Source: a virus
DNA length: 28,288 nt
Virus record (IMG/VR): IMGVR_UViG_3300022777_000088
Reading direction: 5' to 3' (one strand)
In this document: in pieces, positions 3,597-26,647 of the stretch
Numbering within the stretch: the first letter of the stretch is position 1
Layout of the letters: each line of letters begins with the position of its first letter
Position numbers and translations under genes: made by a program
Notes under the pieces: model-generated
The model's database searches: none
Seen by the model: only the letters and a program-made list of their open reading frames with translations
What the model was told of the DNA's origin: nothing

Positions 3597-3927
3597 CAAC
3601 GATCCACGAGACATTCCTTCAACATATCTTGATTGCTACGCCGACTTCAAAAACCGCGTAGAGAATCGCGACTTGCGTCAAACCAACATCCATAGTTTTC
3701 AGCAAGAGTGGGGAGACACGACTTGCGGACATGGGGGAGTTGGAGGGCAAGCGATTACGCCGTCACAGACCTACGTGTTTGACGTAATGGGCGGGGGTTG
3801 GTACGTGTACCAAGGCGGCCGGTTTTCTTATCATGTCGAGAGGCCGAACGACGAGTTTTTCAACGATTTGCGAAGCTGGAACCTGGTTGGAGAGGTAGAT
3901 TATGAGGGGCAGTATGAACAACCGTAG
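3589..3927 (+). CDS. Conserved phage hypothetical protein
   Basis: 'FQQEWGDTTCGHGGVGGQAIT...VYQGGRFSY' resembles a motif I recall from phage hypotheticals; overlapping start at ATG 3589. Confidence 0.7.
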   Translation: MPSNDPRDIPSTYLDCYADFKNRVENRDLRQTNIHSFQQEWGDTTCGHGGVGGQAITPSQTYVFDVMGGGWYVYQGGRFSYHVERPNDEFFNDLRSWNLVGEVDYEGQYEQP

Positions 3928-4147
3928 CGGAATGCAAGAGTGGATTTCGAATCCGTCGCGACCGAGCTACGGAAATCAAGCCGAAACAGAACCTCTTGCC
4001 GAAAACTTTTGGGGCGCAGGGCAGCTTCAACTGTTTGTAAAGGGACTTCGAAAGCGCGGATTCCAAAAGCACGAGTTGAACTATATCAAAACGAAGGGAC
4101 AACCGAGAGACGAAAACATTGTCGATAAAGTGCTTCACATCCGATGA
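3914..4147 (+). CDS. Small HExxY-motif protein
   Basis: 'LRKRGFQKHELNYIK'; overlaps both neighbours. Confidence 0.65.
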   Translation: MNNRSGMQEWISNPSRPSYGNQAETEPLAENFWGAGQLQLFVKGLRKRGFQKHELNYIKTKGQPRDENIVDKVLHIR

Positions 4148-4302
4148 TTAGCCTTTCAAAAATCAAGAACTACTTTTCGTCGAAGCCGTCAGAGCTTGAA
4201 GAGTTTTGTAATCACGAAAAGTACTACATGCTCAGAAAATCTAGCTCTGAAGAGAAACAGCCGGATATGGCGGAACGAATGAAACAGCTTGCAGGGTTAT
4301 GA
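4144..4302 (+). CDS. Small HExxY-motif protein (52 aa) ending RMKQLAGL
   Basis: Own translation MISLSKIKNYFSSKPSELEEFCNHEKYYMLRKSSSEEKQPDMAERMKQLAGL; ATGA overlaps on both sides. Confidence 0.65.
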   Translation: MISLSKIKNYFSSKPSELEEFCNHEKYYMLRKSSSEEKQPDMAERMKQLAGL

Positions 4303-4433
4303 ATGAGAAAGAGCGAACACTTGAAGCTGTTCGGCGGGCGTGCCACGAAGCCGCAAAAGATATGATGGAGAAGCGGCTGAAGCGGTGGGGGTGCGTCGAA
4401 CATGAAATCAAATACGCACGAAAAAACTTTTGA
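4299..4433 (+). CDS. Small HExxY-motif protein (44 aa)
   Basis: Own translation MNEKERTLEAVRRACHEAAKDMMEKRLKRWGCVEHEIKYARKNF. Confidence 0.65.
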   Translation: MNEKERTLEAVRRACHEAAKDMMEKRLKRWGCVEHEIKYARKNF

Positions 4434-5166: not shown

Positions 5167-5446
5167 TATGCACGGAGTCGAGTTCAACGACGAAGAGATG
5201 GAGACGATTCGGAGTATCGGCGTCGAAAATGAGGACTATGCAATATGCGCTATATTTGAGAATAGAAACAATGGCGTAGAAGTCGACTACGAAGAAGAGC
5301 GAAAGTTGATTACCGTGAGAGACGGTGAAAACGAAGTCCAGCAAACCGTTCCGATGATTACTGAGGTTTGCGAGTCTTCCGACTCTCTTCAGCGAATCGG
5401 AGTCGGCGTATCGATGCTTGAAGTTGCAGTCAATATCGAAGAATAA
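5153..5446 (+). CDS. Acidic hypothetical protein
   Basis: ORF in operon context; start at ATG 5153, 5156 or 5168. Confidence 0.65.
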   Translation: MMNFDMHGVEFNDEEMETIRSIGVENEDYAICAIFENRNNGVEVDYEEERKLITVRDGENEVQQTVPMITEVCESSDSLQRIGVGVSMLEVAVNIEE

Positions 5447-5658
5447 TGGAAAGATTAGAAGAGCACGACGTCAAGTTTTGCAAGCGCGAAGACGGCCGGA
5501 TCATAGCAAAAATGGAAGATCCGCCGGTCGAAGGTCACGGCGACGACATTGCCGAGGCGCTTGACGACTTGGCGTACGAAATCCGCCAGTTCTCAGAAGG
5601 GGTATGGGAAGCATTTGAACAGTCAATAATATCTTACGACGAAGACTTTCTGGAATAG
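5446..5658 (+). CDS. HicB-like antitoxin domain protein (orphan)
   Basis: 'EDGRIIAKMEDPPVEGHGDDIAEALDDLAYEI' fits the HicB N-terminal pattern (..G-T/D-x-x-EA..L); no HicA nearby. Confidence 0.55.
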   Translation: MERLEEHDVKFCKREDGRIIAKMEDPPVEGHGDDIAEALDDLAYEIRQFSEGVWEAFEQSIISYDEDFLE

Positions 5659-5666
5659 GTTATGAA

Positions 5667-6056
5667 ATGTGGTTATACTTCATGGCGGGAGTTCCGCCAG
5701 TTGCACTTCTTTTATATCTCGCTATGAAAAACGGCTATGTCACATTCGGAATCGGCGGACTTCAGCAGCGTCGAGATCACGACTCGAAAGAGTGGATAAT
5801 CGAAGAATCCATCGTTCCAATCAAGAGTGGAAGTGTGCAGTTTGAAGTCGAAACTGACGTGAAGTGGTGCCCAAGCACGGGAGAGATTTTCTACCGCAAG
5901 CCCAAAGACACTGGTTTCTTCGAGAAAGAGTGGGAAGAGGTTACAGAGTACACAGATCTCTATAAGAAACTTCTCGCGAACTTTCAGCGGAAGTATCAAT
6001 CGCCGCAACGTCGCGGCAACCCAAATAATCGAACTAAATGGACAACAGCATCATAA
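5667..6056 (+). CDS. Membrane-anchored hypothetical protein
   Basis: N-terminal hydrophobic helix 'WLYFMAGVPPVALLLYLAM'. Confidence 0.65.
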   Translation: MWLYFMAGVPPVALLLYLAMKNGYVTFGIGGLQQRRDHDSKEWIIEESIVPIKSGSVQFEVETDVKWCPSTGEIFYRKPKDTGFFEKEWEEVTEYTDLYKKLLANFQRKYQSPQRRGNPNNRTKWTTAS

Positions 6057-6583
6057 TGGAAAACGTAACATCCGAAGCACTCAGCGACTTGGTTATTCAA
6101 CTTTCCGAAGACGGAAAGACGTTGGATACCGATGAACTCGAAGGCTTGGTTGAGGGAGAAGTCGAAAACATGGACGAAGTGCTCGTCTCTTTGGCGAGAA
6201 CGGCCAGAAAGAATGCATTTGCTCCGCACAGCGATTTTCCCGTTGGAGCGGCGCTTCTCACTGAAAAAGGAATATACTTGGGCGGCAACGTTGAAGTAAG
6301 CGGCCGGTCGACGTCGGTTCACGCCGAAATGCTTGCCGCTTACAAGGCAGTGTTTGATGGAGCCCAAGAGTTTCAGGCAATGTCTGTTTCAACTCCACGT
6401 CAAAGCGCAGACACCGGCCCCTGTGGGCTTTGCCAGCACACGTTGAGTCAGTTCACCGACGAGCTTCGGATCATCGAAGATGGTGGAGACGACGACCACG
6501 GCATTTTCTATCTCTCTGAACTTATCGGAGACGGGTACTCCGCATCAACCCGTCATAAAGAATACGTATCTGACACATCATGA
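6038..6583 (+). CDS. cdd: Cytidine deaminase
   Basis: 'AFAPHSDFPVGAALL', 'GGNVE', zinc motifs 'HAE' and 'PCGLC'. Confidence 0.9.
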   Translation: MDNSIIMENVTSEALSDLVIQLSEDGKTLDTDELEGLVEGEVENMDEVLVSLARTARKNAFAPHSDFPVGAALLTEKGIYLGGNVEVSGRSTSVHAEMLAAYKAVFDGAQEFQAMSVSTPRQSADTGPCGLCQHTLSQFTDELRIIEDGGDDDHGIFYLSELIGDGYSASTRHKEYVSDTS

Positions 6584-7329
6584 ACATATACGAACGGTTA
6601 CAAGAAGAAAAGCAGATCGTCGCGTTTTGCGGCAAAAAGCGAAGCGGGAAGGATACGGCAGGAGACGCCATTGCTTCTCACGGCTATTTCCCAATCGCTT
6701 TCGCTGACCCCATCAAAGAGACATGCCAGCTCGTTTTCGAGTTTGACGACGAGCAGGTGTTTGGAGCGAGAAAAGAAGAAGTCGATCCGTTTTGGGACTT
6801 CTCTCCACGGTGGGCGATGCAGACGATTGGCACCGAGCTTTTTCGCGAAGGCATTGACGAAGACGTTTGGGTAAAGTCCTTGCTTGCTCGGATTGACGCG
6901 TCCAGTCACAGCAAGTTTGCCGTGACCGACGTAAGGTTTCCGAATGAAGTGGACCATCTTCAACGTGCAGGAGCGGAGGTGGTCCACATTCGGAGGCCGT
7001 CAAAAGAGCCAGAACTGGACCCGACAAAGAAGTGGTTTGCGCAAAAAGGTGGGATCATCAAAAAAGCGGCTTCGCTTTTCACCGACTTCGGCTCTGAGTA
7101 TCACGCTTCTGAAATCTCTCTCGACAGGCATCCGGTCACTAACAAAGCCGACATTCTGAATGACGGCACGATCGATGAGTTTCGAGTGGCGGTTCGGTTT
7201 TACGTTGAGCAGGTTGAAGAGGGAAACGACGAGTTCGTTGAGCAAGTCCAGCTTTCAGCCAAGTCAATGAACAAAAATGAGCTTCCCGATGGACGGACGG
7301 TTCACGGCGCTAATATGAAGACTGTGTAA
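6580..7329 (+). CDS. Deoxynucleoside monophosphate kinase (T4 gp1-like)
   Basis: P-loop 'GKKRSGKDT', 'FADPIKE', 'PRWAMQTIGTE', 'VTDVRFPNE', 'HASE'. Confidence 0.9.
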   Translation: MNIYERLQEEKQIVAFCGKKRSGKDTAGDAIASHGYFPIAFADPIKETCQLVFEFDDEQVFGARKEEVDPFWDFSPRWAMQTIGTELFREGIDEDVWVKSLLARIDASSHSKFAVTDVRFPNEVDHLQRAGAEVVHIRRPSKEPELDPTKKWFAQKGGIIKKAASLFTDFGSEYHASEISLDRHPVTNKADILNDGTIDEFRVAVRFYVEQVEEGNDEFVEQVQLSAKSMNKNELPDGRTVHGANMKTV

Positions 7330-7375
7330 ATCCATACTTATAGGAAACATCGGTGCCGAAAGTCGGTTATACATA

Positions 7376-7927
7376 ATGCACTATCAACCAACCGACCTTC
7401 CAAAGCAAATGAAACGCAAAGCAAAACAGCTCGCAGAGAAAGCTCACGAAGGACAGCGGAGAAAGTTTGAAGGGCAGGCTTTCGTTGAGCATCCAAAGGC
7501 AGTTGCTTTGCTCGTTCAGAGGGTGACGGACGCAACAGAAGAAATGGTCACGGCTGCTCTTCTTCACGACGTCGTTGAGGACACCGAAGTTGAAATCGGT
7601 GAAATCAAAGACCGTTTTGGAAAGAAGGTCGCGAAGATTGTTCAGTCGCTAACAACCGACAAAGAGAAGCGCGACGAGCTTGGCAAGGCGGCGTACTTGG
7701 GACACAAGATGGCGGGAATGGAAGACAAAACGCTGACAATCAAGCTGTGCGACCGCTATCACAACGTCAAACGCATTGACGAAACCCCCGAGAACTTTCG
7801 GACGCGGTATTCCGCTGAAACGATGGAGACGCTTTCCGTCCTGACCGAACACCGCGATCTGAACAGCACACAGAAGCGCATCGTAAGCGAAATCATCAAG
7901 AAAGTTTCCTGGCATTATGAGCGTTGA
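7376..7927 (+). CDS. HD-domain small alarmone hydrolase, Mesh1/SpoT-hydrolase-like
   Basis: 'AHEGQRRK', 'EHP', 'AALLHDVVEDT', 'IKLCDRYHN'; no synthetase domain. Confidence 0.85.
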   Translation: MHYQPTDLPKQMKRKAKQLAEKAHEGQRRKFEGQAFVEHPKAVALLVQRVTDATEEMVTAALLHDVVEDTEVEIGEIKDRFGKKVAKIVQSLTTDKEKRDELGKAAYLGHKMAGMEDKTLTIKLCDRYHNVKRIDETPENFRTRYSAETMETLSVLTEHRDLNSTQKRIVSEIIKKVSWHYER

Positions 7928-11365: not shown

Positions 11366-11944
11366 ATGGACACGATATTTGCACCAGAATTTCTAGAAAA
11401 CAAAGTCAAATCCAAGTACAAAGAGAAAATCAATCCGACTCATACGTACATTCCGGACTCAACAACGGGAAAGCCGATAGATAATAAAACTTCAATCGGC
11501 CAGAAGCAAACCACCACGCCAAATCCGAGCAAGTGGCCGGTGGATATTGCGAGCGACCCGTTTGTTCAGTCAGTGCTCGACGACCGGAACATTTTCGCTC
11601 AACATGAGCTTGAGTACCTTGACAATAACTGTCCAGACGACATCTTCAACGAGTACGATGAAATGATGCCCATGATGGACGAGTTGGAAAAGAGGATTGA
11701 CGAAGACATTTTCCGGGAGATTCTTGACGAGATCGAAGACGCTGAAAATCCATTTGAGGACCCCGACGACCATCGAGACTGGACGCAAGAGAGGCCGGAT
11801 TGGACGAATCCGGACAGCACTCCTTACATTGGAGACAACTACCAGAAGCTCGACGGAATGTACGAAGAGCAGCGGACTATCGGCATGTTCGAGACCGAAG
11901 AAGAAGTTGAGCAAGCCATAAAGATCATGAACGGCAATGAATGA
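11366..11944 (+). CDS. Acidic hypothetical protein containing HExxY motif
   Basis: 192 aa ORF; 'IFAQHELEYL'. Confidence 0.75.
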   Translation: MDTIFAPEFLENKVKSKYKEKINPTHTYIPDSTTGKPIDNKTSIGQKQTTTPNPSKWPVDIASDPFVQSVLDDRNIFAQHELEYLDNNCPDDIFNEYDEMMPMMDELEKRIDEDIFREILDEIEDAENPFEDPDDHRDWTQERPDWTNPDSTPYIGDNYQKLDGMYEEQRTIGMFETEEEVEQAIKIMNGNE

Positions 11945-12392
11945 GTCCGACGCTCAGAAAACGATATACAAGGACTTCATTCAAGAGAAGCGCCATGTGC
12001 TTGCGGTTCCCAACTGCAAGGCGCTGTACCCGAGAGGCGAGTCGGACTTGATTAGCGTCACGCCCGCGGGGCTTGTTCACGAGTTTGAAATCAAGCGAAC
12101 TGAAAGCGATTTTGAGCGTGACTTCGAGAGCAAGTCCTTCAAGCACGAAGTCCTTGAGGAAGGCGCGCCGATTGATGACAAATGCACGCCGAACTACTTT
12201 TGGTTCGCGATGCCGCGAACACTTTGCGAGAAAGTGGAGGTTCCAGAGTACGCAGGAAAAATGTGTCTCGGGTCAAGCGGCTGCGACGTAAAGAAAAAGG
12301 CGCCTCGTCGGCACTCCCGAAACATTACCGACAGGGCGAGACAGTATCTTGAAAGGGGCGTGACCGTGCGTTTTTGGGACAAAAGTTTTTGA
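11937..12392 (+). CDS. PD-(D/E)XK nuclease-like protein (MmcB-like)
   Basis: 'ESDLISV...HEFEIKRTESDFERD...PNYFWFAMP'. Confidence 0.65.
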   Translation: MNESDAQKTIYKDFIQEKRHVLAVPNCKALYPRGESDLISVTPAGLVHEFEIKRTESDFERDFESKSFKHEVLEEGAPIDDKCTPNYFWFAMPRTLCEKVEVPEYAGKMCLGSSGCDVKKKAPRRHSRNITDRARQYLERGVTVRFWDKSF

Positions 12393-12440
12393 GTTGGGTT
12401 ATATATAAACTCGCACGGCACAAACAAACCCTCTCAAACA

Positions 12441-13265
12441 ATGGATAACCCTCTCAAAAGAAGTTTCGACCTTGAGTTTAAGGAAACCGAAGAAACCGAC
12501 GAACCTTCCGATAAGGTCGATCACGACAAAGCATTTGATCAGTCTCAGGGAGCTGCGAGCTTTCTGAATGAGGAAAGCAACCCGTTCAGCGAAGAAGAAA
12601 CATCCGAAGAGGATGAAGGAATGGACGAAGCTGTTCTTTCCGCTCTTAACGAAGCGCAGGGCGGCGGTTCGCAGTATCAGCCGGAAGAAGTGACGCAAGA
12701 GGAAGAAGAGGTCGAAGAGGCTGATCGTGGAGCAGTCGAAGACGTTCTCGCGCACATCAACGGCAACTACGAGAAGCAAAACGAAGATCGCGACCGAGGC
12801 GCCGTTGAAGACGTTCTTCAAGACTTGAACAGCGAGAACGAGTACGGAAAGAACCTTGGGGATATTTTTGAAGAAGAGGAAGAAGACGGCGACGTTCCCG
12901 AAGAGTTCAAAGATCAGCAAGAGGGGGGTGAAGAGGAAGAAGATATGGAGGAAGCAGTCGATGCCGTGCTGAACCAGGTTCTTAGCGAGCAGCAAGAGCC
13001 GCTTCACGAGGACTGGAAGCAGCGAGTTCTTGAGGACGAAGACCCTTGCTGGGAGGATCACACGATGGTCGGAACCAAGATGCAAGACGGCGAAGAGGTC
13101 CCGAACTGCGTTCCAGAGGATGAAGCTGAAGACTACGAAGCAAACGAGTCAGTGAGCCGACAGGGCTCGATTTCAGAGGACGACGTGATGGATGCCGTGC
13201 TTGAAGATCAGGTCGAAGAGCTTTCTCGACTCGATCAGCTTGCGGAACAAGTACTTAACGGATAA
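12441..13265 (+). CDS. Extremely acidic, repeat-containing protein, possibly virion head-internal
   Basis: 'DRGAVEDVL' twice, 'M(D/E)(E)AV' repeats, motif 'DPCWEDHTMVGTKMQDGEEVPNCVP'. Confidence 0.7.
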   Translation: MDNPLKRSFDLEFKETEETDEPSDKVDHDKAFDQSQGAASFLNEESNPFSEEETSEEDEGMDEAVLSALNEAQGGGSQYQPEEVTQEEEEVEEADRGAVEDVLAHINGNYEKQNEDRDRGAVEDVLQDLNSENEYGKNLGDIFEEEEEDGDVPEEFKDQQEGGEEEEDMEEAVDAVLNQVLSEQQEPLHEDWKQRVLEDEDPCWEDHTMVGTKMQDGEEVPNCVPEDEAEDYEANESVSRQGSISEDDVMDAVLEDQVEELSRLDQLAEQVLNG

Positions 13266-13269
13266 CACA

Positions 13270-13341
13270 ATGATTACTCGAACTGGAGGACATTTTGCGG
13301 ATTTTGCGATGCACGCTAATGGTATGCATAGCAACTACTAA
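13270..13341 (+). CDS. Putative 23-aa attenuator leader peptide MITRTGGHFADFAMHANGMHSNY
   Basis: ATG 4 nt after the previous stop; ends 4 nt before an antiterminator strand. Confidence 0.5.
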   Translation: MITRTGGHFADFAMHANGMHSNY

Positions 13342-13345
13342 CCCG

Positions 13346-13388
13346 CTCGCCAGTTTGTCCGCAGGTGTGAAAAGCCCGAGCTGGCGAG
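13346..13388 (+). promoter_or_regulatory. Putative antiterminator helix
   Basis: CTCGCCAGTTT (13346-13356) pairs with GAGCTGGCGAG (13378-13388), overlapping the terminator 5' arm and loop. Confidence 0.55.
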
Positions 13389-13411
13389 AGCCGGTTCGGG
13401 CTTTTCTTTTT
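13370..13411 (+). terminator. Rho-independent terminator
   Basis: AAAAGCCCGAGCTGGC-GAGA-GCCGGTTCGGGCTTTT followed by CTTTTT. Confidence 0.85.
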
Positions 13412-13498
13412 ATGGGCTTCACATTTTTGCGGGAACTCTTCTTCGCTTTCGTGCATATAAGCACACGCATTGATATAATAATCAACCAGTCAAAACAC

Positions 13499-13774
13499 GT
13501 GGATGACGTAACAGAGGCGAGAAAACGAATCCGGGAGCGGCTTTCCTTGTTACGGGACAGGCGCGATTCAATGGAAGAAATGAAAGACTCCGCTGTTCGA
13601 AACAGTCCGGAGTGGTGCAGCGCTCATAGTTCGTTCCAAGAAACGAAAGAAGAGATTGACTTTCTGGAAGATCTTCTTTCTTTGGGCGCAGAGAAAAATC
13701 CAAATGTTGAGAAAGAAGACAACTCGCCGTGGTATCCACCCGGAGAAGATTACAAAAACGGACGTTGGTACTGA
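13499..13774 (+). CDS. Hypothetical protein (GTG start)
   Basis: Helical sequence from 'VDDVTEARKR'; the upstream part of the 13295 ORF overlaps regulatory hairpins. Confidence 0.65.
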   Translation: MDDVTEARKRIRERLSLLRDRRDSMEEMKDSAVRNSPEWCSAHSSFQETKEEIDFLEDLLSLGAEKNPNVEKEDNSPWYPPGEDYKNGRWY

Positions 13775-13782
13775 AAACACAT

Positions 13783-13859
13783 GGGCCTTAGTAGCTAATA
13801 AGCGGTTGAGCGACTGTTTTGCACGCAGTTGTATGCCGGTTCAAATCCGGTCGGGTCCA
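13783..13859 (+). tRNA. tRNA-Ala(TGC) with 2-nt bulge in acceptor stem
   Basis: GGGCCT-[TA]-G / CGGGTCC with G3:U70, A73; ACTGT-TTTGCAC-GCAGT; GCCGG-TTCAAAT-CCGGT. Confidence 0.85.
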
Positions 13860-13895
13860 CAACCTTTACATTACTTACACAACCCTTTGCTACCT

Positions 13896-14120
13896 GTGAA
13901 CTGGTACGGAGTTGATGAAACGGGCGCTTACATTGTCGCGACGAGATTTTCGGACAGATGCGGTGCTCCAGTTTCAATCAAGTATCACATTGAACGGTGG
14001 GAGAGTTTTGATGGCCTCCCTCCAGCTCCGTCTCGCAAGTGGACATACGGGCTTTACGACTTGACGAAAGAAGAAAAAGAGAGCCTTGAGGACTTCATGC
14101 AAGGGGTTACGGGATGTTAA
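13896..14120 (+). CDS. Hypothetical protein
   Basis: ORF between tRNAs; GTG/TTG start uncertain. Confidence 0.5.
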   Translation: MNWYGVDETGAYIVATRFSDRCGAPVSIKYHIERWESFDGLPPAPSRKWTYGLYDLTKEEKESLEDFMQGVTGC

Positions 14121-14123
14121 AAT

Positions 14124-14198
14124 GTCGGTGTAGCTCAAGTCTGGTAGAGCGCAAGAGTGAAATCCTTGGCGTTGGGGGTTCAAATCCTTCCACCGGCA
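14124..14198 (+). tRNA. tRNA-Phe(GAA) copy 1
   Basis: GTCGGTG/CACCGGC; CAAGA-GTGAAAT-CCTTG (A31:C39 mismatch, G32); T loop TTCAAAT. Confidence 0.88.
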
Positions 14199-14199
14199 C

Positions 14200-14313
14200 A
14201 TGTATTCGTTTTTGGCCAAACATGAAGTTGAATACATTGAGTCCAAAGGCGACGACTACGCAAAGCAAGAGTTTGTTGCTGATTGGATAATGCTGCAAAT
14301 AACGGCTCGGTAA
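14200..14313 (+). CDS. HExxY-motif microprotein (37 aa)
   Basis: Own translation MYSFLAKHEVEYIESKGDDYAKQEFVADWIMLQITAR; stop lies within the next tRNA. Confidence 0.55.
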   Translation: MYSFLAKHEVEYIESKGDDYAKQEFVADWIMLQITAR

Positions 14314-14376
14314 CTCAGTTGGTAGAGTGCCAGATTGAAGATCTGGAGGTCGTTGGTTCAAGTCCAACTCGAGCCA
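14304..14376 (+). tRNA. tRNA-Phe(GAA) copy 2
   Basis: GGCTCGG/TCGAGCC; CCAGA-TTGAAGA-TCTGG; GTTGG-TTCAAGT-CCAAC. Confidence 0.95.
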
Positions 14377-14377
14377 C

Positions 14378-14527
14378 ATGATAAGCTCAATCGAAGACCG
14401 TGTGAAGTTTGCGATTCCGGTTGCAAAGCTGCTCGCTCAACACGAGATTGATTATGTGAACGACCAGTCGCTTTCGGCGCCGGACCGTTTTCTTTCGAAA
14501 CACGGAACGTACTTGAAAAATGCCTGA
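14378..14527 (+). CDS. HExxY-motif microprotein (49 aa)
   Basis: Own translation MISSIEDRVKFAIPVAKLLAQHEIDYVNDQSLSAPDRFLSKHGTYLKNA. Confidence 0.6.
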   Translation: MISSIEDRVKFAIPVAKLLAQHEIDYVNDQSLSAPDRFLSKHGTYLKNA

Positions 14528-15049: not shown

Positions 15050-15124
15050 GTGGGCCATAGTTCAATCGGTAGAACGCTGGGTTGTGATCCCAGTCTGTTC
15101 TCGGTTCGAGTCCGAGTGGTCCAC
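15050..15124 (+). tRNA. tRNA-His(GTG) copy 1 (encoded G-1, C73)
   Basis: G-TGGGCCA/TGGTCCA-C; CTGGG-TTGTGAT-CCCAG; CTCGG-TTCGAGT-CCGAG. Confidence 0.92.
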
Positions 15125-15127
15125 CTA

Positions 15128-15237
15128 CATGTACGGCAGGGCACGTTTGGGTTCGAGTCCCATTTAGAACGGAGCCACGTCCGCTTGGCAAAGAGTTGGC
15201 CGCTCGAAGCGGGGTTCAAGTCCTTGCGCCGTACATG
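15128..15237 (+). ncRNA. tRNA-like RNA with two T-arm hairpins
   Basis: 10-bp closing stem CATGTACGGC/GCCGTACATG enclosing TGGG-TTCGAGT-CCCA and GGGG-TTCAAGT-CCTT. Confidence 0.6.
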
Positions 15238-15242
15238 CACAT

Positions 15243-15319
15243 GTGGGCCATTGATAAGTTCGGTCTAAATCGCTGCACTGTGGCTGCAGTAATCGTGGGT
15301 TCAAATCCCACTGGTCCAC
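15243..15319 (+). tRNA. tRNA-His(GTG) copy 2 (encoded G-1, C73)
   Basis: Same acceptor as copy 1; CTGCA-CTGTGGC-TGCAG; GTGGG-TTCAAAT-CCCAC. Confidence 0.9.
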
Positions 15320-15358
15320 CTACCTTCATTGTAAGTGAACGAAAGCGGATATATACAA

Positions 15359-17747: not shown

Positions 17748-17779
17748 GGCTATTGCACGATGGAGGGAAGGGAAGACAC

Positions 17780-17791
17780 GTTCTTTGACAT
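17780..17791 (+). promoter_or_regulatory. boxA-like antitermination site
   Basis: GTTCTTTGACAT ~30 nt after the promoter; similar sites at 18763 and 19237. Confidence 0.55.
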
Positions 17792-17797
17792 GCGAAA

Positions 17798-18669
17798 AAA
17801 GGCAGTAGGTCCGAGCAAGGGACAGGACCGAAAGCTGGAAACAGGTCTCCGTTAAGGATGGTTCGAATCCATTTTAGCCTTTGAGCCCTCTCTGGCAACG
17901 GGACTGGACGGTTCGAATCCGTAAGCAAAACGATCAAACTGCTGGTTTCGTGCTGGCGAGCTGGCAACTCTTGTTCTTGTTTTGACTTGATAAAGGACGG
18001 TTAGATTCCGTTCTGCAAGAACAAGATAAGGGGACTAGCCTAAATCGAAATGGCTCATAATTCCATTGACGCCCACTACGAAACACGCGCCATCGGACAT
18101 ACAGCTTTCAAAAATGTCCGATTTCTTTTGCCTTAGAAGGGTGAAGAGAGAGGTTACTGAAGCCACGGGCATTAGCACCGTGAGTTGAAACCCTCTATAA
18201 AAAGACTGATGCCGGGCTGATCGGGAAGCCGCCATCGACGCGGTTTTATGGTCAGGTTCAACTTCCACCCAGCTCGGCTGGCCCGTTGCGGCCTACCGTC
18301 GTCGTTTCGTCAGAAGAAAAGTGACCGTCGCCTGATCAGCGACACGGAGCGGATTGGACGGCGAAACGACGGCTCGCAAACGCAACTTATATAGGCTCCG
18401 AACTTGGCGGTCTCACAGACTACGGTTCGAATCCGTTTTCATGGATCATAAAGAGGGTTCAAGTCCCTCCGAGCCTACAAACCAGGTTCACGCCTACTGT
18501 GAAGGGTTTCCCAAGCATATGGTTGGCACTGCTCAAAAGTCAGACGGGGTTCGAATCCCAAGTGAGCTGTTCGCGGACGGTTCCGTGAACCAACGCTTTG
18601 CTTTTTCGCGAACACGTTTTCCGAAATGAAGTTTGAAGGATACTGGAACCAAGGCGGGGCTTCAAATTT
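17798..18669 (+). ncRNA. Large structured non-coding region / array of T-loop-containing RNA modules
   Basis: No credible ORF; seven T-loop-like motifs, most in hairpins; consecutive long closing stems; driven by a strong promoter and boxA-like site. Confidence 0.75.
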
Positions 18670-18695
18670 AAGAGAATGTGAAGAAACTTGAAGTT

Positions 18696-18739
18696 GTTTG
18701 ACATCGGGCTTGCGCTTCCCTACATTGGGTAGTGCGATA
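18696..18739 (+). promoter_or_regulatory. sigma70 promoter, copy 1 of a 44-bp direct repeat
   Basis: TTGACA(18698)-17 nt-TACATT(18721); 43/44 identical to 19091-19134. Confidence 0.85.
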
Positions 18740-18865
18740 CTTGGGGAGAGAGAAAAACGAAATGTTCTTTGACTTTGTGGGATACGACAACGGAGCGGAA
18801 GGTTGACTACCGATACGCTGCCGTTGGTGCCGACGCGTCTAGTCAGCGCTTCAGGCTGTCAAGCG

Positions 18866-18942
18866 AACCCGTTAGCTCAGTTCGGTAGAGCGCCCGTGCT
18901 TATGCGCGGGGTCGGTCGTCGGTTCAAATCCTTCACGGGTTT
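18866..18942 (+). pseudogene. Aberrant tRNA (non-7-nt anticodon loop, mismatched T stem)
   Basis: AACCCGT/ACGGGTT, normal D arm; CCCGTGC-TTAT-GCGCGGG; T stem GTCGG/CCTTC with two mismatches. Confidence 0.65.
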
Positions 18943-18947
18943 GCACG

Positions 18948-19050
18948 CTGCCATTAGCTCAAGTTGGTAGAGCGGCGTCATTGAAGGCGTGAACCCAAAG
19001 CATGGTGTCTTTGGGTTTAGTTGTTGCGGGTTCAAATCCCGCATGGCAGT
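18948..19050 (+). ncRNA. Aberrant class-II-like tRNA (6-nt loop ATTGAA, very long variable arm); Ser(TGA)-like?
   Basis: CTGCCAT/ATGGCAG; GCGTC-ATTGAA-GGCGT; variable arm GAACCCAAAG...CTTTGGGTTT; GCGGG-TTCAAAT-CCCGC. Confidence 0.65.
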
Positions 19051-19090
19051 TTTTTCAATCCCACATTCTTTTGTGAAGAAAAAATAAGCC

Positions 19091-19134
19091 GTTTGACATT
19101 GGGCTTGCGCTTCCCTACATTGGGTAGTGCGATA
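19091..19134 (+). promoter_or_regulatory. sigma70 promoter, copy 2 of the 44-bp direct repeat
   Basis: TTGACA(19093)-17 nt-TACATT(19116). Confidence 0.85.
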
Positions 19135-19154
19135 GAAGGAAAGAAAAAACATAC

Positions 19155-19229: not shown

Positions 19230-19249
19230 CAATCTATGTTCTTTACTTT

Positions 19250-19389
19250 GCGGTCGTGTGGCGAGCAATCGGCAATCGCCGTCATTACCAAAGTCGTTAG
19301 CTACGGCGTTTGGCGTCAAATCGGATAGCCTCCGAAAACACATGTGACCTAGCGGCTCATGTGTGCGGGTTCAAGTCCCGCCGTCCGCG
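19250..19389 (+). ncRNA. Expanded tRNA-like RNA with three UAGC-loop hairpins
   Basis: Acceptor GCGGTCG/CGTCCGC, D-like arm GGCGA/TCGCC, T arm GCGGG-TTCAAGT-CCCGC; three internal hairpins with TAGC loops. Confidence 0.7.
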
Positions 19390-19456
19390 CATTGACATTA
19401 CGGTGCCTCCGTAGAGCCCGCGCGTTTCTTCTTTTCAAGCACAAAAGCAGTAATTA

Positions 19457-22221: not shown

Positions 22222-22250
22222 TTGACATTGTTCATTGTTTGTATTAGATT
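22222..22250 (+). promoter_or_regulatory. sigma70-type promoter
   Basis: TTGACA-17 nt-TAGATT. Confidence 0.75.
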
Positions 22251-23104: not shown

Positions 23105-26100
23105 ATGGATACACACAACTTTTCATATAGAACCCTGTTGATGGCCATGAGTTTTCTCATGGTCTTTTCTATTGTGGGCGCAACGTCGGCAATGGGACAG
23201 GTCACGAACGCTCGTGTATCGGGAACAGTGGTGGATGAGAACTCCAAGGCACTGCCCGGAGCGAACGTCGTGATGGTTCACCGTCCAACAGGTACAGAAT
23301 ATGGCACGGTGACGGAGACAGACGGAAATTTCAATTTTGGTAACGTTCGTGTCGGTGGTCCCTACGTGATTGAAGTATCATTTGTGGGATATCGATCAGA
23401 ACGTGAAACTGGATTCCAACTCGATCTCGGTGAAAACCGAACCTTTGAGTTTCAACTGGAATCGAAAACTGAAAAACTTGGAGAGGTAACAGTTGAAGCT
23501 GAAGAAGGATTATTCAGTGAAGATCGACAGGGAATCAAAACTAACATTGATCAAGAGGCAATCGAAACTGCTCCGACGATGGACCGTCAGGTTGCAGACT
23601 TTGCTCGTCTTACTCCACAAGCAATTGTGGGAAATGACGATGATGACGGTTCAAGTATTTCTATCGCTGGACAAAACAACCGATACAACTCGCTTTTCAT
23701 TGATGGAGCGGTTGCGAATGACGTGTTCGGTTTATCTGCACAGGGAACAGATGGTGGACAAACCGGAGCAAGTCCGATTAGCATCGACGCAATTGAGCAG
23801 TTCGATGTTGAAGTTTCTCCATATGACGTAACGCAAAGTTACTTTGGAGGTGGGGCGATCAACGCAGTTACGAAAAGTGGAAGTAATGAGTTTGAAGGTT
23901 CTTTCACTTACGAAACTCGTAACGAAACAGTCTCCGAAGACCTTCCAGAGTTCACAAATAATCGTTACGTCGGAAATGTAAGTGGACCGATTATTGAAGA
24001 TGAACTGTTCTTCTTCGCAAACTTTGATATCAATCGAGAAGAGAGTCCTCAACCCTTCGAAGGCGGTTTTGATGGGTTTCAGGGTGACGCAATCTCTTCC
24101 TCGCAGGACTTGAATGAGTTTGTGAGCTTCCTTGACCAGACCACTGGATTTGATCCAGGTGAAATCAGAGGTCAGCAAACGACTCTTGACAGCGAGAAGT
24201 TTCTTATTCGGCTTGACTGGAATATCAACCAGGATCACAAGCTCATGACCAGGTATAGCCGATCTAATTCGGAAAACGTTGATGCGTTTGGAGGAAGTCC
24301 TACAAATCTTACGTTTTCCAGTCAAAACGAGATATTTCCGAACACGACGCATATTTTTGCGACGGAGTTGAATAGTTCATTCGGAAATCGTTTTGCGAAC
24401 TCCCTTACGTTCTCGTTCAAAAGAGTGAAGGACAATCGGGGAACGAACATCAACAGTAATTTTCCGACTGTGAGTATTACAGATGGTGGAGCAGATGTGA
24501 ACTTTGGCGCAGAGCCGTTTTCTACGGTCAATCTGCTCAAACAAAATGTCATGACAGCTACAAATGACTTTGATATTTATGCTGGTGATCATACCATTAC
24601 GGTAGGAACCCACCAGGAGTTCTTTGATATCACAAATAAGTTCGTTCCATTCAATAACGGTTGGCACATTTTCTTCGATACCAACGATAATGGAACGGGG
24701 ATCGACGAATTCAAACAAACGGTCTGCGCTTCCCCTCAAGTTGACAGAAGCAGCGTTGATGAGTGTTCAAAGTTTCCGAATCGGCCAGCATTCAACGTCT
24801 TTGCGCGTGGATTTTCGCTTCAAGACGACAATCCAAATACTCCTGGATTTGAGGAAACGCTTGGAGACGCTACGAATGCGCAGGGAGCTTTCAACTCGCT
24901 TAACTCTAGCTTCTACATTCAAGACGAGTGGAAGGCAAGTGACCGCTTGACCTTGACTGGTGGATTGCGAGTTGACATTCCATTCTACTTGGATGATCCA
25001 GCGTTTCCGAATCCAAACAATCCACTTTCGCCAGACGATCCAAAGATCAATCCGAAAACGACGACCATTCCAGCTATCAAGAGCATAACGGAAAATGGTC
25101 GCCAATTTCATGATCTTGAAGGCGCAAGAGTGGGAGAAACGCCAAGTCCAAATCCACACATTGCTCCTCGCTTTGGGTTCAATGTGGATCTGCAAGAAGA
25201 GTATGATACGCAGATTCGTGGTGGAACGGGAGTTTTCACGTCTCGACAACCTCTCGTTTGGCCGGGTGGAATGTACTTAAACAACGGAATGAACACAGGA
25301 ACGATTGACTTTGCGTTCGGTCGAAATGAGTTCCGACCGAATCCGGGAGAAGGAAGTGTGGCTACAAGACCACAGTTTGAGGGGCGAAGCCCTTCGGAGC
25401 TTATTCCAAGTGGACGACTTGAAATTTTTGCGGAAGATTACAAGAACCCTCGTTTCTGGCGATCTTCTCTCGCAATCGATCATGAGCTTCCGGGTGGCGT
25501 AACTGCTACGCTTGAAGGACAATTCACTGAAACTATGACGAACATCGCAGTTCGGAATGTGAATTTGCGTCCACCGAATGAGACGACAGACGGCCCGGCG
25601 CAGCGGCCAATCTGGGTTCCTTCTCAGTTTGAACAGCGTGGGGAGTTTGGCGCTGCTGGAGACCAGAGAGTTGATAGCCGATTCTCTAATATCAACGTCG
25701 TAAGCAATACCAGTGAAGGTTATTCTTATGACGTGACTGCCCGATTCCAAAAGACGTTTCAGAATCTAACGGAATCTACGTCGCTTGAGACAGATTTCTC
25801 CTATACGTTCGGTGACTCTTACAGTGAGAACGATGGACTTAGTTCTCAAATTAACAGCGTATGGGAAGGTCCTGAAAATGTAAATGGACTCAACGATCCC
25901 GGCGTCGCGAGAAGTGACTTTTCAATTGGTCATCGGTTTCTTGTGCGTGCGGGAGTTCGCCAAGAGATTAGTGAAAATGTCAATAGCACAGTTTCGCTCA
26001 TTTACGATGGACAATCTGGACGGCCATTTTCCTACGTGATTGGAGGAAGTGACCGAATGGTTCGTGAGCGCGGTGAACCACGTTCTCTTTTCTTCGTTCC

Positions 26101-26647
26101 TGAGGACGCTTCTCAGCTTTCGTTTGCTGAAACACAGATCAATGGAGTGACCGTTACTCCCGAGCATCAAGCAAACGCATTGGACCAGTTTATTTCAGAG
26201 AACGAAACTCTTTCTGAAAAGCGTGGACAGTTCACTGCCAGAAACGATGACCGAACTCCATTTGAAGGCGTGGTTGACCTTCAAACAAACGTGGAGCTAA
26301 CTCATGACATTCTTGGTCGTGATCAAAGCGTGGAGCTTACTGCTCATGTCTTCAATTTCAGTTCACTTCTGGGTGATGCGCTTGGCACCGATTGGGGACA
26401 GCGGTTTATTGGCTTCAGTCGGGTCCAACCGACCGAATTCCAGAGGTTCAAAGACGCTGAAAATGGAGACTTTACGCCAGTCTTTACTGCTCCAAGAGTT
26501 ATCGGTAGCGTTGAAGATACAAACGGCGACGGTGTTGCTGAAAACGTTGAAACACTGGAGCAAGGTGAACTCTTTACCGAACGAACAACTGGCAGTTCGT
26601 TTAGCTCCCAGTGGCAAGTCAAATTCGGTGTTACCTATAACTTCTAA
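23105..26647 (+). CDS. TonB-dependent outer-membrane receptor, Oar-like, with N-terminal carboxypeptidase-regulatory-like domain
   Basis: Signal peptide; 'SGTVVDENSKALPGANV'; plug 'IDGAVAND..SIDAIEQF..GGAINAVTKSGSNEF'; 'YIQDEW..LTLTGGLRVD'; C-terminal BAM signal 'FGVTYNF'. Confidence 0.92.
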   Translation: MDTHNFSYRTLLMAMSFLMVFSIVGATSAMGQVTNARVSGTVVDENSKALPGANVVMVHRPTGTEYGTVTETDGNFNFGNVRVGGPYVIEVSFVGYRSERETGFQLDLGENRTFEFQLESKTEKLGEVTVEAEEGLFSEDRQGIKTNIDQEAIETAPTMDRQVADFARLTPQAIVGNDDDDGSSISIAGQNNRYNSLFIDGAVANDVFGLSAQGTDGGQTGASPISIDAIEQFDVEVSPYDVTQSYFGGGAINAVTKSGSNEFEGSFTYETRNETVSEDLPEFTNNRYVGNVSGPIIEDELFFFANFDINREESPQPFEGGFDGFQGDAISSSQDLNEFVSFLDQTTGFDPGEIRGQQTTLDSEKFLIRLDWNINQDHKLMTRYSRSNSENVDAFGGSPTNLTFSSQNEIFPNTTHIFATELNSSFGNRFANSLTFSFKRVKDNRGTNINSNFPTVSITDGGADVNFGAEPFSTVNLLKQNVMTATNDFDIYAGDHTITVGTHQEFFDITNKFVPFNNGWHIFFDTNDNGTGIDEFKQTVCASPQVDRSSVDECSKFPNRPAFNVFARGFSLQDDNPNTPGFEETLGDATNAQGAFNSLNSSFYIQDEWKASDRLTLTGGLRVDIPFYLDDPAFPNPNNPLSPDDPKINPKTTTIPAIKSITENGRQFHDLEGARVGETPSPNPHIAPRFGFNVDLQEEYDTQIRGGTGVFTSRQPLVWPGGMYLNNGMNTGTIDFAFGRNEFRPNPGEGSVATRPQFEGRSPSELIPSGRLEIFAEDYKNPRFWRSSLAIDHELPGGVTATLEGQFTETMTNIAVRNVNLRPPNETTDGPAQRPIWVPSQFEQRGEFGAAGDQRVDSRFSNINVVSNTSEGYSYDVTARFQKTFQNLTESTSLETDFSYTFGDSYSENDGLSSQINSVWEGPENVNGLNDPGVARSDFSIGHRFLVRAGVRQEISENVNSTVSLIYDGQSGRPFSYVIGGSDRMVRERGEPRSLFFVPEDASQLSFAETQINGVTVTPEHQANALDQFISENETLSEKRGQFTARNDDRTPFEGVVDLQTNVELTHDILGRDQSVELTAHVFNFSSLLGDALGTDWGQRFIGFSRVQPTEFQRFKDAENGDFTPVFTAPRVIGSVEDTNGDGVAENVETLEQGELFTERTTGSSFSSQWQVKFGVTYNF

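Follow-up and report, generated by a model that had tools for sequence, protein, structure and literature searches.

A candidate translation-controlled attenuator ahead of the tRNA genes of a salt-water phage

Introduction

Classical leader-peptide attenuators are known from trpL, hisL and pheL, and multivalent ones from the thrL and ilvGMEDA leaders. In the pheM-pheST attenuator of E. coli, whose leader is located behind an upstream gene, Phe codons control a synthetase through the supply of charged tRNA. T-box riboswitches also tie terminator/antiterminator control to tRNA status, but they bind the tRNA directly and have no ORF. The mechanism of leader-peptide attenuation is taken here as outlined in PMC1183508.

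The reason why phages carry tRNA genes has been argued for decades, chiefly between codon compensation and counter-defence, and phage tRNAs have been proposed to evade host anticodon nucleases through altered tRNA sequence (PMC10264068). That work addresses tRNA sequence, and the terms 'attenuat' and 'promoter' are absent from it. In the literature searched, from which most subscription journals were missing, phage tRNA genes were not found described as targets of leader-peptide attenuation.

Judged by its sequence, the phage locus presented here appears to display the structural features of trp/his/thr attenuators but to control tRNA genes. With trpL, hisL, pheL, thrL and ilvGMEDA it shares a short ORF, alternative 2:3 and 3:4 helices and an intrinsic terminator, and possibly also a 1:2 helix and product-related codons. 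It differs from them in that it is phage-borne, that tRNA genes instead of biosynthetic enzymes lie downstream, that the leader codons are mixed without runs and that the leader lies close behind an upstream gene. Phe codons, a translation-machinery target and the position behind an upstream gene are also common to pheM-pheST; pheM controls a synthetase, whereas the phage locus would control tRNA, with no pheS downstream and two to three Phe codons per phage leader. Identity with a T-box was rejected, as Rfam at the gathering threshold gave no non-tRNA match in the window and none at E<=0.1 in the leaders of the related loci L004 to L010. Finally, the phage tRNA-Phe anticodon loops differ from that of the host, which resembles the pattern that PMC10264068 proposes for the evasion of nucleases.

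Results

Layout of the locus and its likely host

The window, i.e. the whole stretch of 28,288 nucleotides analysed, belongs to a contig of 134,161 bases. Its GC content is 47%, the encoded proteins are acidic and 15 tRNA calls were obtained with ARAGORN. The features needed below are the following (window positions; L004 to L010 are related metagenomic loci):

12400..12409, + strand: ATATATA motif ahead of the acidic gene, a possible promoter of the leader transcript
12441..13265, + strand: upstream gene and synteny anchor, encoding an acidic 274-aa protein with the motif PCW..G..EVPNCVP
13270..13341, + strand: leader ORF of 23 codons, starting 4 nt past the upstream stop
13279..13301, + strand: segment 1, predicted anti-antiterminator CGAACTGG, pairing with 13350-13357
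13346..13357, + strand: segment 2, antiterminator 5' strand CTCGCCAGTTTG, 12/12 pairs with 13377-13388 at -19.0 kcal/mol, covarying in relatives
13356..13366, + strand: motif TGTCCGCARGT of the antiterminator-loop spacer, conserved in the window and L006-L010, missing in L004/L005
13369..13411, + strand: intrinsic terminator, segments 3:4, with GAGA loop and U tract (U-tract terminator in 7/7)
13432..13461, + strand: promoter-like element GGAAC-N17-CATATAAG past the terminator
13471..13479, + strand: TGATATAAT, extended -10 look-alike, its TATAAT kept in 0/6 aligned relatives
13499..13774, + strand: 91-aa ORF of no known family, in a slot that is variable among relatives and empty in L004/L005
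13784..13860, + strand: tRNA-Ala(UGC), first tRNA past the switch, also the first downstream tRNA in 7/7 related loci
14124..14199 and 14304..14377, + strand: two tRNA-Phe(GAA) genes (Phe after Ala in 7/7 related loci, two Phe called in 5/7)
15051..15125 and 15244..15320, + strand: two tRNA-His(GUG) genes, missing from the syntenic stretch of L005
16026..16104, + strand: tRNA with CAU anticodon, Met or Ile2
23105..26647: phage-borne TonB-dependent receptor, 64–68% identity over the 400 residues tested to its best matches

The best matches of the TonB-dependent receptor belong to Salinivenus, Salinibacter and unclassified Bacteroidetes bins. On the basis of this identity to Salinivenus/Salinibacter proteins, a phage of Salinibacteraceae with Salinivenus/Salinibacter as host is likely. 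Both Salinivenus genomes inspected contain a four-Trp leader ORF with a terminator before trpE (L291:1235-1315 and L292), and the likely host group thus seems, by sequence, to use the attenuator layout. No leader ORF of such kind was detected before pheS or hisG in these two genomes. An origin of the phage leader from pheM was rejected: neither genome has a pheM-like ORF before pheS, and capture from these hosts is therefore unsupported.

Downstream of the switch, tRNA genes and small ORFs without known function are found, with no genes for synthesis or activation of the amino acids presumed to be sensed. The first six tRNA genes are Ala, Phe, Phe, His, His and Met, in this order. A tRNA-Asn gene follows 8.7 kb downstream behind sigma-70-like promoters; scans of the plus strand between the leader region and this gene revealed only short terminator-like sites (5–8 bp). 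All 12 phage tRNA-Phe anticodon loops listed are unlike the host loop CU-GAA-AA, and 11 of them carry G37.

Predicted terminator and antiterminator folds are mutually exclusive

The preliminary description of this DNA had reported the leader ORF, a strand 4 nt further on and its pairing into a strong terminator. All these elements were found, and the two predicted folds exclude each other. The strand CTCGCCAGTTT at 13346-13356 has its partner at 13378-13388, and addition of the pair 13357:13377 gives a helix of 12 bp. Such a duplex is not expected by chance (p=0.0005, 2000 shuffles). The terminator stem comprises 17 bp (13369-13406), and its 5' arm and loop (13377-13388) double as the 3' strand of the antiterminator. 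The region 13357-13415 folds at -33.3 kcal/mol with a z score of -5.1. The spacer motif is able to form a small hairpin in some loci.

Transcripts were folded with and without 13346-13356 blocked. Transcripts ending at 13392-13398 adopt the antiterminator fold at -21 to -23 kcal/mol, and blocking of the strand leads to the terminator hairpin for ends at 13395-13398. From position 13401 on, the terminator wins whether the strand is blocked or not, and the switch would therefore have to be kinetic.

Conservation and covariation in related loci

Of 211 loci in the metagenome scan 80 were kept, and seven of these, L004 to L010, are true orthologs for which the downstream DNA is available. The element has the same sequence in L004 and L005, so that the seven contigs hold six distinct sequences and seven are obtained with the window; they represent about four independent lineages (window/L008; L009; L006/L007/L010; L004). 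Each of L004 to L010 carries the leader ORF, the antiterminator and the terminator, followed by tRNA-Ala(UGC) and then tRNA-Phe(GAA). The protein ORF past the terminator varies among loci and L004/L005 go directly into tRNA-Ala, which makes the tRNAs the constant downstream feature.

The remaining 73 of the 80 kept loci match mostly over a short motif, and three that were inspected (L011, L013, L015) display neither leader-terminator nor tRNA. Searches of 11900-14400 against annotated phages (blastn) returned tRNA matches only, a protein search of phages with P0048 matched the PCW motif only, and a genome-contig scan with A2 gave no match. Scans of viral contigs revealed no ortholog of the locus: they matched the PCW motif only, nothing at all, or two sequences that had no terminator on inspection. 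In the distant 263-kb phage G003, with 43 tRNA hits, no comparable terminator-antiterminator pair was found across the tRNA region, where one weak pairing (-11.6) is located at a poor hairpin. This phage has on the minus strand (L287:9657-9541) a Glu-free ORF of 38 codons with a broad residue mix; its array of 43 tRNAs begins about 540 nt further on. A perfect 13-bp hairpin without U tract follows this ORF, which is not homologous to the window leader.

Covariation was scored in 12 columns anchored on the terminator arm, with the offset picked for best pairing, as MAFFT alignments misplace segment 2. In this register, 77 of 84 cells are paired across the seven distinct sequences and 6 of 12 columns changed on both sides. 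The helix covariation that the preliminary description had proposed as a check was thereby found, and the attenuator architecture, conserved with compensatory changes in all seven distinct sequences, is strongly supported. Columns 10–12 reach into the terminator loop and read GAG:CTC in the window and L008, TTC:GAA in L006/L010 and CTC:GAG in L004; the loop itself is GAGA in one case and TCAC in another. These loop bases are not constrained by the 3' arm of the terminator, so that copying of a terminator arm would hardly account for their covariation. Breaks in the helix occur in L009, in two of columns 10–12, and in L008, in four other columns.

The contiguous cognate 2:3 helices range from -10.4 to -19.0 kcal/mol across loci. 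Segment 2 of the window pairs at -19.0 kcal/mol with its own arm versus -2.2 to -6.1 with the arms of other loci. Shuffling gave p values for the 2:3 duplex of 0.0005, 0.0015, 0.002, 0.002, 0.022, 0.048 and 0.069, the weak ones belonging to L007 (0.022), L009 (0.048) and L008 (0.069). As a control, 70 terminators were collected from 3.2 Mb (both strands counted), the window's own having been removed from a list of 71. None of them reaches -10 (best -9.4, median about -2.8), including the 18 GC-rich ones, although control hairpins are often shorter than those of the switch terminators.

The leader ORF and its upstream gene

The acidic protein encoded upstream has about 20 full-length homologues with 34–59% identity among 31 matches. 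It belongs to no Pfam family, and its PHROGs matches are all of unknown function.

The leader ORF 13270-13341 reads MITRTGGHFADFAMHANGMHSNY. An ORF of 18–28 codons is present in 7/7 distinct sequences with its ATG 4–11 nt after the upstream stop, a placement reached by 1.5–2.4% of shuffles per locus (20,000 shuffles each), and both other reading frames over the leader are interrupted by stops in 7/7. Across loci the leader stop lies within 0–11 nt of segment 2, and the ORF stays open through whole-codon indels. No Shine-Dalgarno motif precedes the leader, which is normal in this window since an SD-like motif was found in 0 of its 36 genes; the start context is A-rich.

Segment 1 and ribosome masking

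In naked RNA before the terminator arm is made, segment 2 is predicted to be buried against the ORF in 7/7. Compared with codon shuffles, the 1:2 helix reached p<0.05 in only 2/7 (window p=0.20), and a duplex test with long loops also gave p<0.05 in 2/7. Leader codons 7–11 can alternatively pair with the GTCCGCAGGTGT spacer.

A ribosome-masking model predicted a high antiterminator probability with the A-site at most ORF codons, collapsing at or near the stop. With the first setting, the probability at the stop was 0.03 in the window, 0.00–0.04 in L006, L007, L009 and L010, 0.2 in L008 and 0.38 in L004. The model is crude: its outcome shifts with the settings for L007, L008 and L009, and no clean switch was obtained for the host trp leader. 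Its result is thus consistent with a switch and does not prove it. The stop-codon masking geometry put forward in the preliminary description fits six of the seven sequences. The exception is L008, where the leader stop is located 11 nt ahead of the antiterminator strand and a switch at the stop would need the anti-antiterminator pairing of the leader itself.

Leader codons

Ten His/Phe/Ala/Met residues among codons 8–20 and 18 of 23 residues matching eight downstream tRNA types had been noted in the window leader, together with the order of the tRNA genes; all were confirmed. Counted over internal codons, Ala/Phe/His/Met amount to 10/22 (binomial p=2e-4; permutation of amino-acid sets p=0.006) and the eight-type set to 17/22 (p=0.0004). 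The proposed specificity for His, Phe, Ala and Met held for the window and not for the relatives. By set permutation, none of the other six leaders passes with these four residues (p=0.05–0.47), and Ala+Phe alone is borderline (p=0.03–0.09). His and Met together occupy 5/22 codons in the window versus 0–2 per leader in the other six.

Against a background of 6,454 phage codons, a pool of four lineages (95 codons) is enriched in Ala (16/95, p=2e-5), Asn (13, p=0.001) and Phe (9, p=0.04) and depleted of Glu (0, p=1.5e-5), with His (4) and Met (4) not significant. The residues conserved across relatives are Ala, Asn and Phe, and the His/Met bias is mainly the window's own. Tested per leader against phage composition, Ala+Phe gave p=0.009–0.053 and the eight-type set p=2e-5 to 0.03. 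Synteny between L005 and the window extends from the leader to a TTGACT-17-TATAAT promoter, and L005 has one His codon and no His tRNA versus three codons and two His tRNAs in the window. This one contrast is suggestive of leader His codons tracking His tRNA genes.

Other properties of the leaders do not follow the tRNA genes so closely. The conserved Asn mismatches the nearest tRNAs, and so does the absence of GCA, which the first tRNA matches exactly, from all 16 Ala codons of the four-lineage pool. About half of the leader codons are U-ending in six of the seven leaders, versus 27% in phage genes and 9% in host genes. There are neither long single-codon runs nor a dominant amino acid. A core F..[NH][AT]N is kept in 7/7 leaders, with few synonymous changes among L004, L006 and L007, and its third positions are conserved too (TTT in 9/9 Phe codons; AC-RCT-AAT).

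Promoter-like elements

The ATATATA motif is located about 40–55 nt before the ATG in all five loci inspected (window, L004, L006, L007, L008), and it may start the transcript entering the leader. Past the terminator, the extended -10 TGATATAAT had been raised as a possible independent promoter of the tRNA cluster. It is present, but as a conserved promoter it was rejected, TATAAT being kept in none of the six aligned relatives. Instead, GGAAC-N16/17-YATAYAAG occurs in all eight loci (window and L004-L010) and is absent from G001-G003; in the window it has a single match, with none in 100 shuffles. We take it to resemble a promoter for an alternative sigma factor. It may be an independent second input to the tRNA cluster, possibly bypassing the switch, and the attenuator may therefore add to a basal tRNA level rather than gate it fully. 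By eye, a small hairpin with an AUAYAA loop and a GTGC/GCAC stem is possible at the CATATAAG element (window 13450-13467), with a CTC/GAG stem in L004, L006 and L008 and none in L009 or L010.

Additional observations in the window and in L005

A pair of atypical tRNAs lies at 18865-18944 and 18948-19050: one has a UAU-like loop on which ARAGORN was undecided, and the second has a GAA anticodon with a long insertion (Rfam 39.5 bits). Non-coding sequence containing T-loop-like GGTTCRA motifs, not called as tRNA, occurs at window 15127-15240, 17760-18480 and 19240-19400 and in L005 at 7250-7850; a block similar to 17760-18360 is found in L005, where it likewise follows the TTGACT-17-TATAAT promoter. 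A direct repeat of 78 nt (18677-18754 and 19072-19149) places the same TTGACA-17-TACATT promoter ahead of tRNA genes, and a similar promoter is also seen at 22222. An RNA ligase gene in pieces (691-2879), with Hint/intein segments around an inserted DUF559-type ORF, is possibly devoted to tRNA repair. An HD_4 domain protein is encoded upstream of the tRNA region (7376-7927), and from its family resemblance it is possibly a (p)ppGpp hydrolase. In L005, endonuclease-like ORFs end in or beside tRNA genes (5170-6100 and 3700-4400), one CAU tRNA being seemingly split around one of them.

Discussion

We favour, with a little more than even confidence, a transcription attenuator worked by ribosomes, in which slow reading of Ala, Phe or Asn codons, and here also of His or Met codons, would increase transcription of the phage tRNA genes. 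Its parts do not stand on equal footing. It is very probable, from sequence comparison, that the locus is a conserved terminator/antiterminator switch run by leader translation; that the switch reads the supply of specific tRNAs is somewhat probable. Translation of the leader is likely and would probably start by re-initiation 4–11 nt past the acidic gene. At the stop, segment 2 would be masked by the ribosome or, after release, be captured by segment 1, and the terminator would form. If the ribosome were held anywhere in the ORF, segment 2 would remain available for pairing with the terminator 5' arm and loop, with read-through into tRNA-Ala, the two tRNA-Phe genes and onward. The products would be the tRNAs that read the leader, which would close a negative feedback.

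The slow reading would most plausibly come from tRNA loss. A low fraction of regulatory codons lowers the sensitivity of an attenuator (PMC1183508), and a leader of mixed codons would sense mild starvation poorly but would react to the complete loss of a tRNA. A shortage of amino acids would not be cured by extra tRNA, and for this reason loss by cleavage or exhaustion fits better than shortage. Tentatively, and with less than even odds, the phage could audit the tRNA pool, its leader codons spelling the tRNAs it can replace, and host tRNA cleavage would induce tRNAs with altered loops in a self-limiting counter-defence. As part of the same tentative reading, leader codons would change with gain and loss of tRNA genes, as for His here.

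Alternatively, the switch could respond in a general way to how fast ribosomes move or how well transcription and translation are coupled, with late slowing giving read-through and the codons reflecting RNA folding and slow U-ending codons. The masking model, in which a stall at almost any ORF codon favours the antiterminator, is in line with this reading, as are the share of U-ending codons (about half in six of seven leaders, against 27% and 9% for phage and host genes), the lack of long single-codon runs, and the misfit of Asn and the missing GCA with the nearest tRNAs. This reading does not account for the enrichment of Ala, Phe and the eight-type set in every leader relative to phage composition (p=0.009–0.053 and 2e-5 to 0.03), nor for the His/Met excess of the window, which goes along with the extra His and CAU tRNAs encoded there, and we regard it as rather unlikely. 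We give little credit to a real switch that is set by a bound protein or RNA, similar to phage antitermination and with TGTCCGCARGT or ACRCTAAT as possible sites, translation of the ORF being incidental: nucleotide motifs are indeed conserved past coding need and a spacer hairpin is possible in some loci, but L004/L005 lack the spacer motif and still have the ORF and helices, and the ORF remains open through whole-codon indels with its stop 0–11 nt from segment 2.

The core kept in 7/7 leaders, with its few synonymous changes among L004, L006 and L007, could point to a nascent peptide (F-A-x-F-A-x-x-A-N-like) that arrests the ribosome on a ligand or stress, as in TnaC, and flips the same switch. 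Most positions vary freely and lengths range from 18 to 28, though, and the conservation of third positions in the core (TTT 9/9; AC-RCT-AAT) indicates a codon or RNA constraint more than a peptide one, which makes such an arrest very unlikely. Highly improbable, finally, is an ordinary terminator of the acidic gene transcript, in which the ORF and the alternative pairing would be incidental and the tRNAs would be made from downstream promoters only. The full-length terminator does exceed the antiterminator by far in stability, all loci have a promoter-like element behind the terminator, and segment 2 looks like segment 4, from which it could have arisen by duplication; but the compensatory pairing into the terminator loop is not derivable from copying segment 4, such a partner was found in 0/70 control terminators, and the ORF is kept in 7/7.

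For the attenuator favoured here, the compensatory pairing into the terminator loop is the comparative evidence that this locus contributes. If the attenuator is real, classical attenuation would extend from enzyme operons to tRNA genes, in the form of a feedback loop. A sensor wired to tRNA genes makes the question of what phage tRNAs are for accessible to experiment. A rise of read-through upon tRNA loss would mean that the tRNAs repair the pool on demand and that the leader codons reveal which tRNAs the phage expects to lose.
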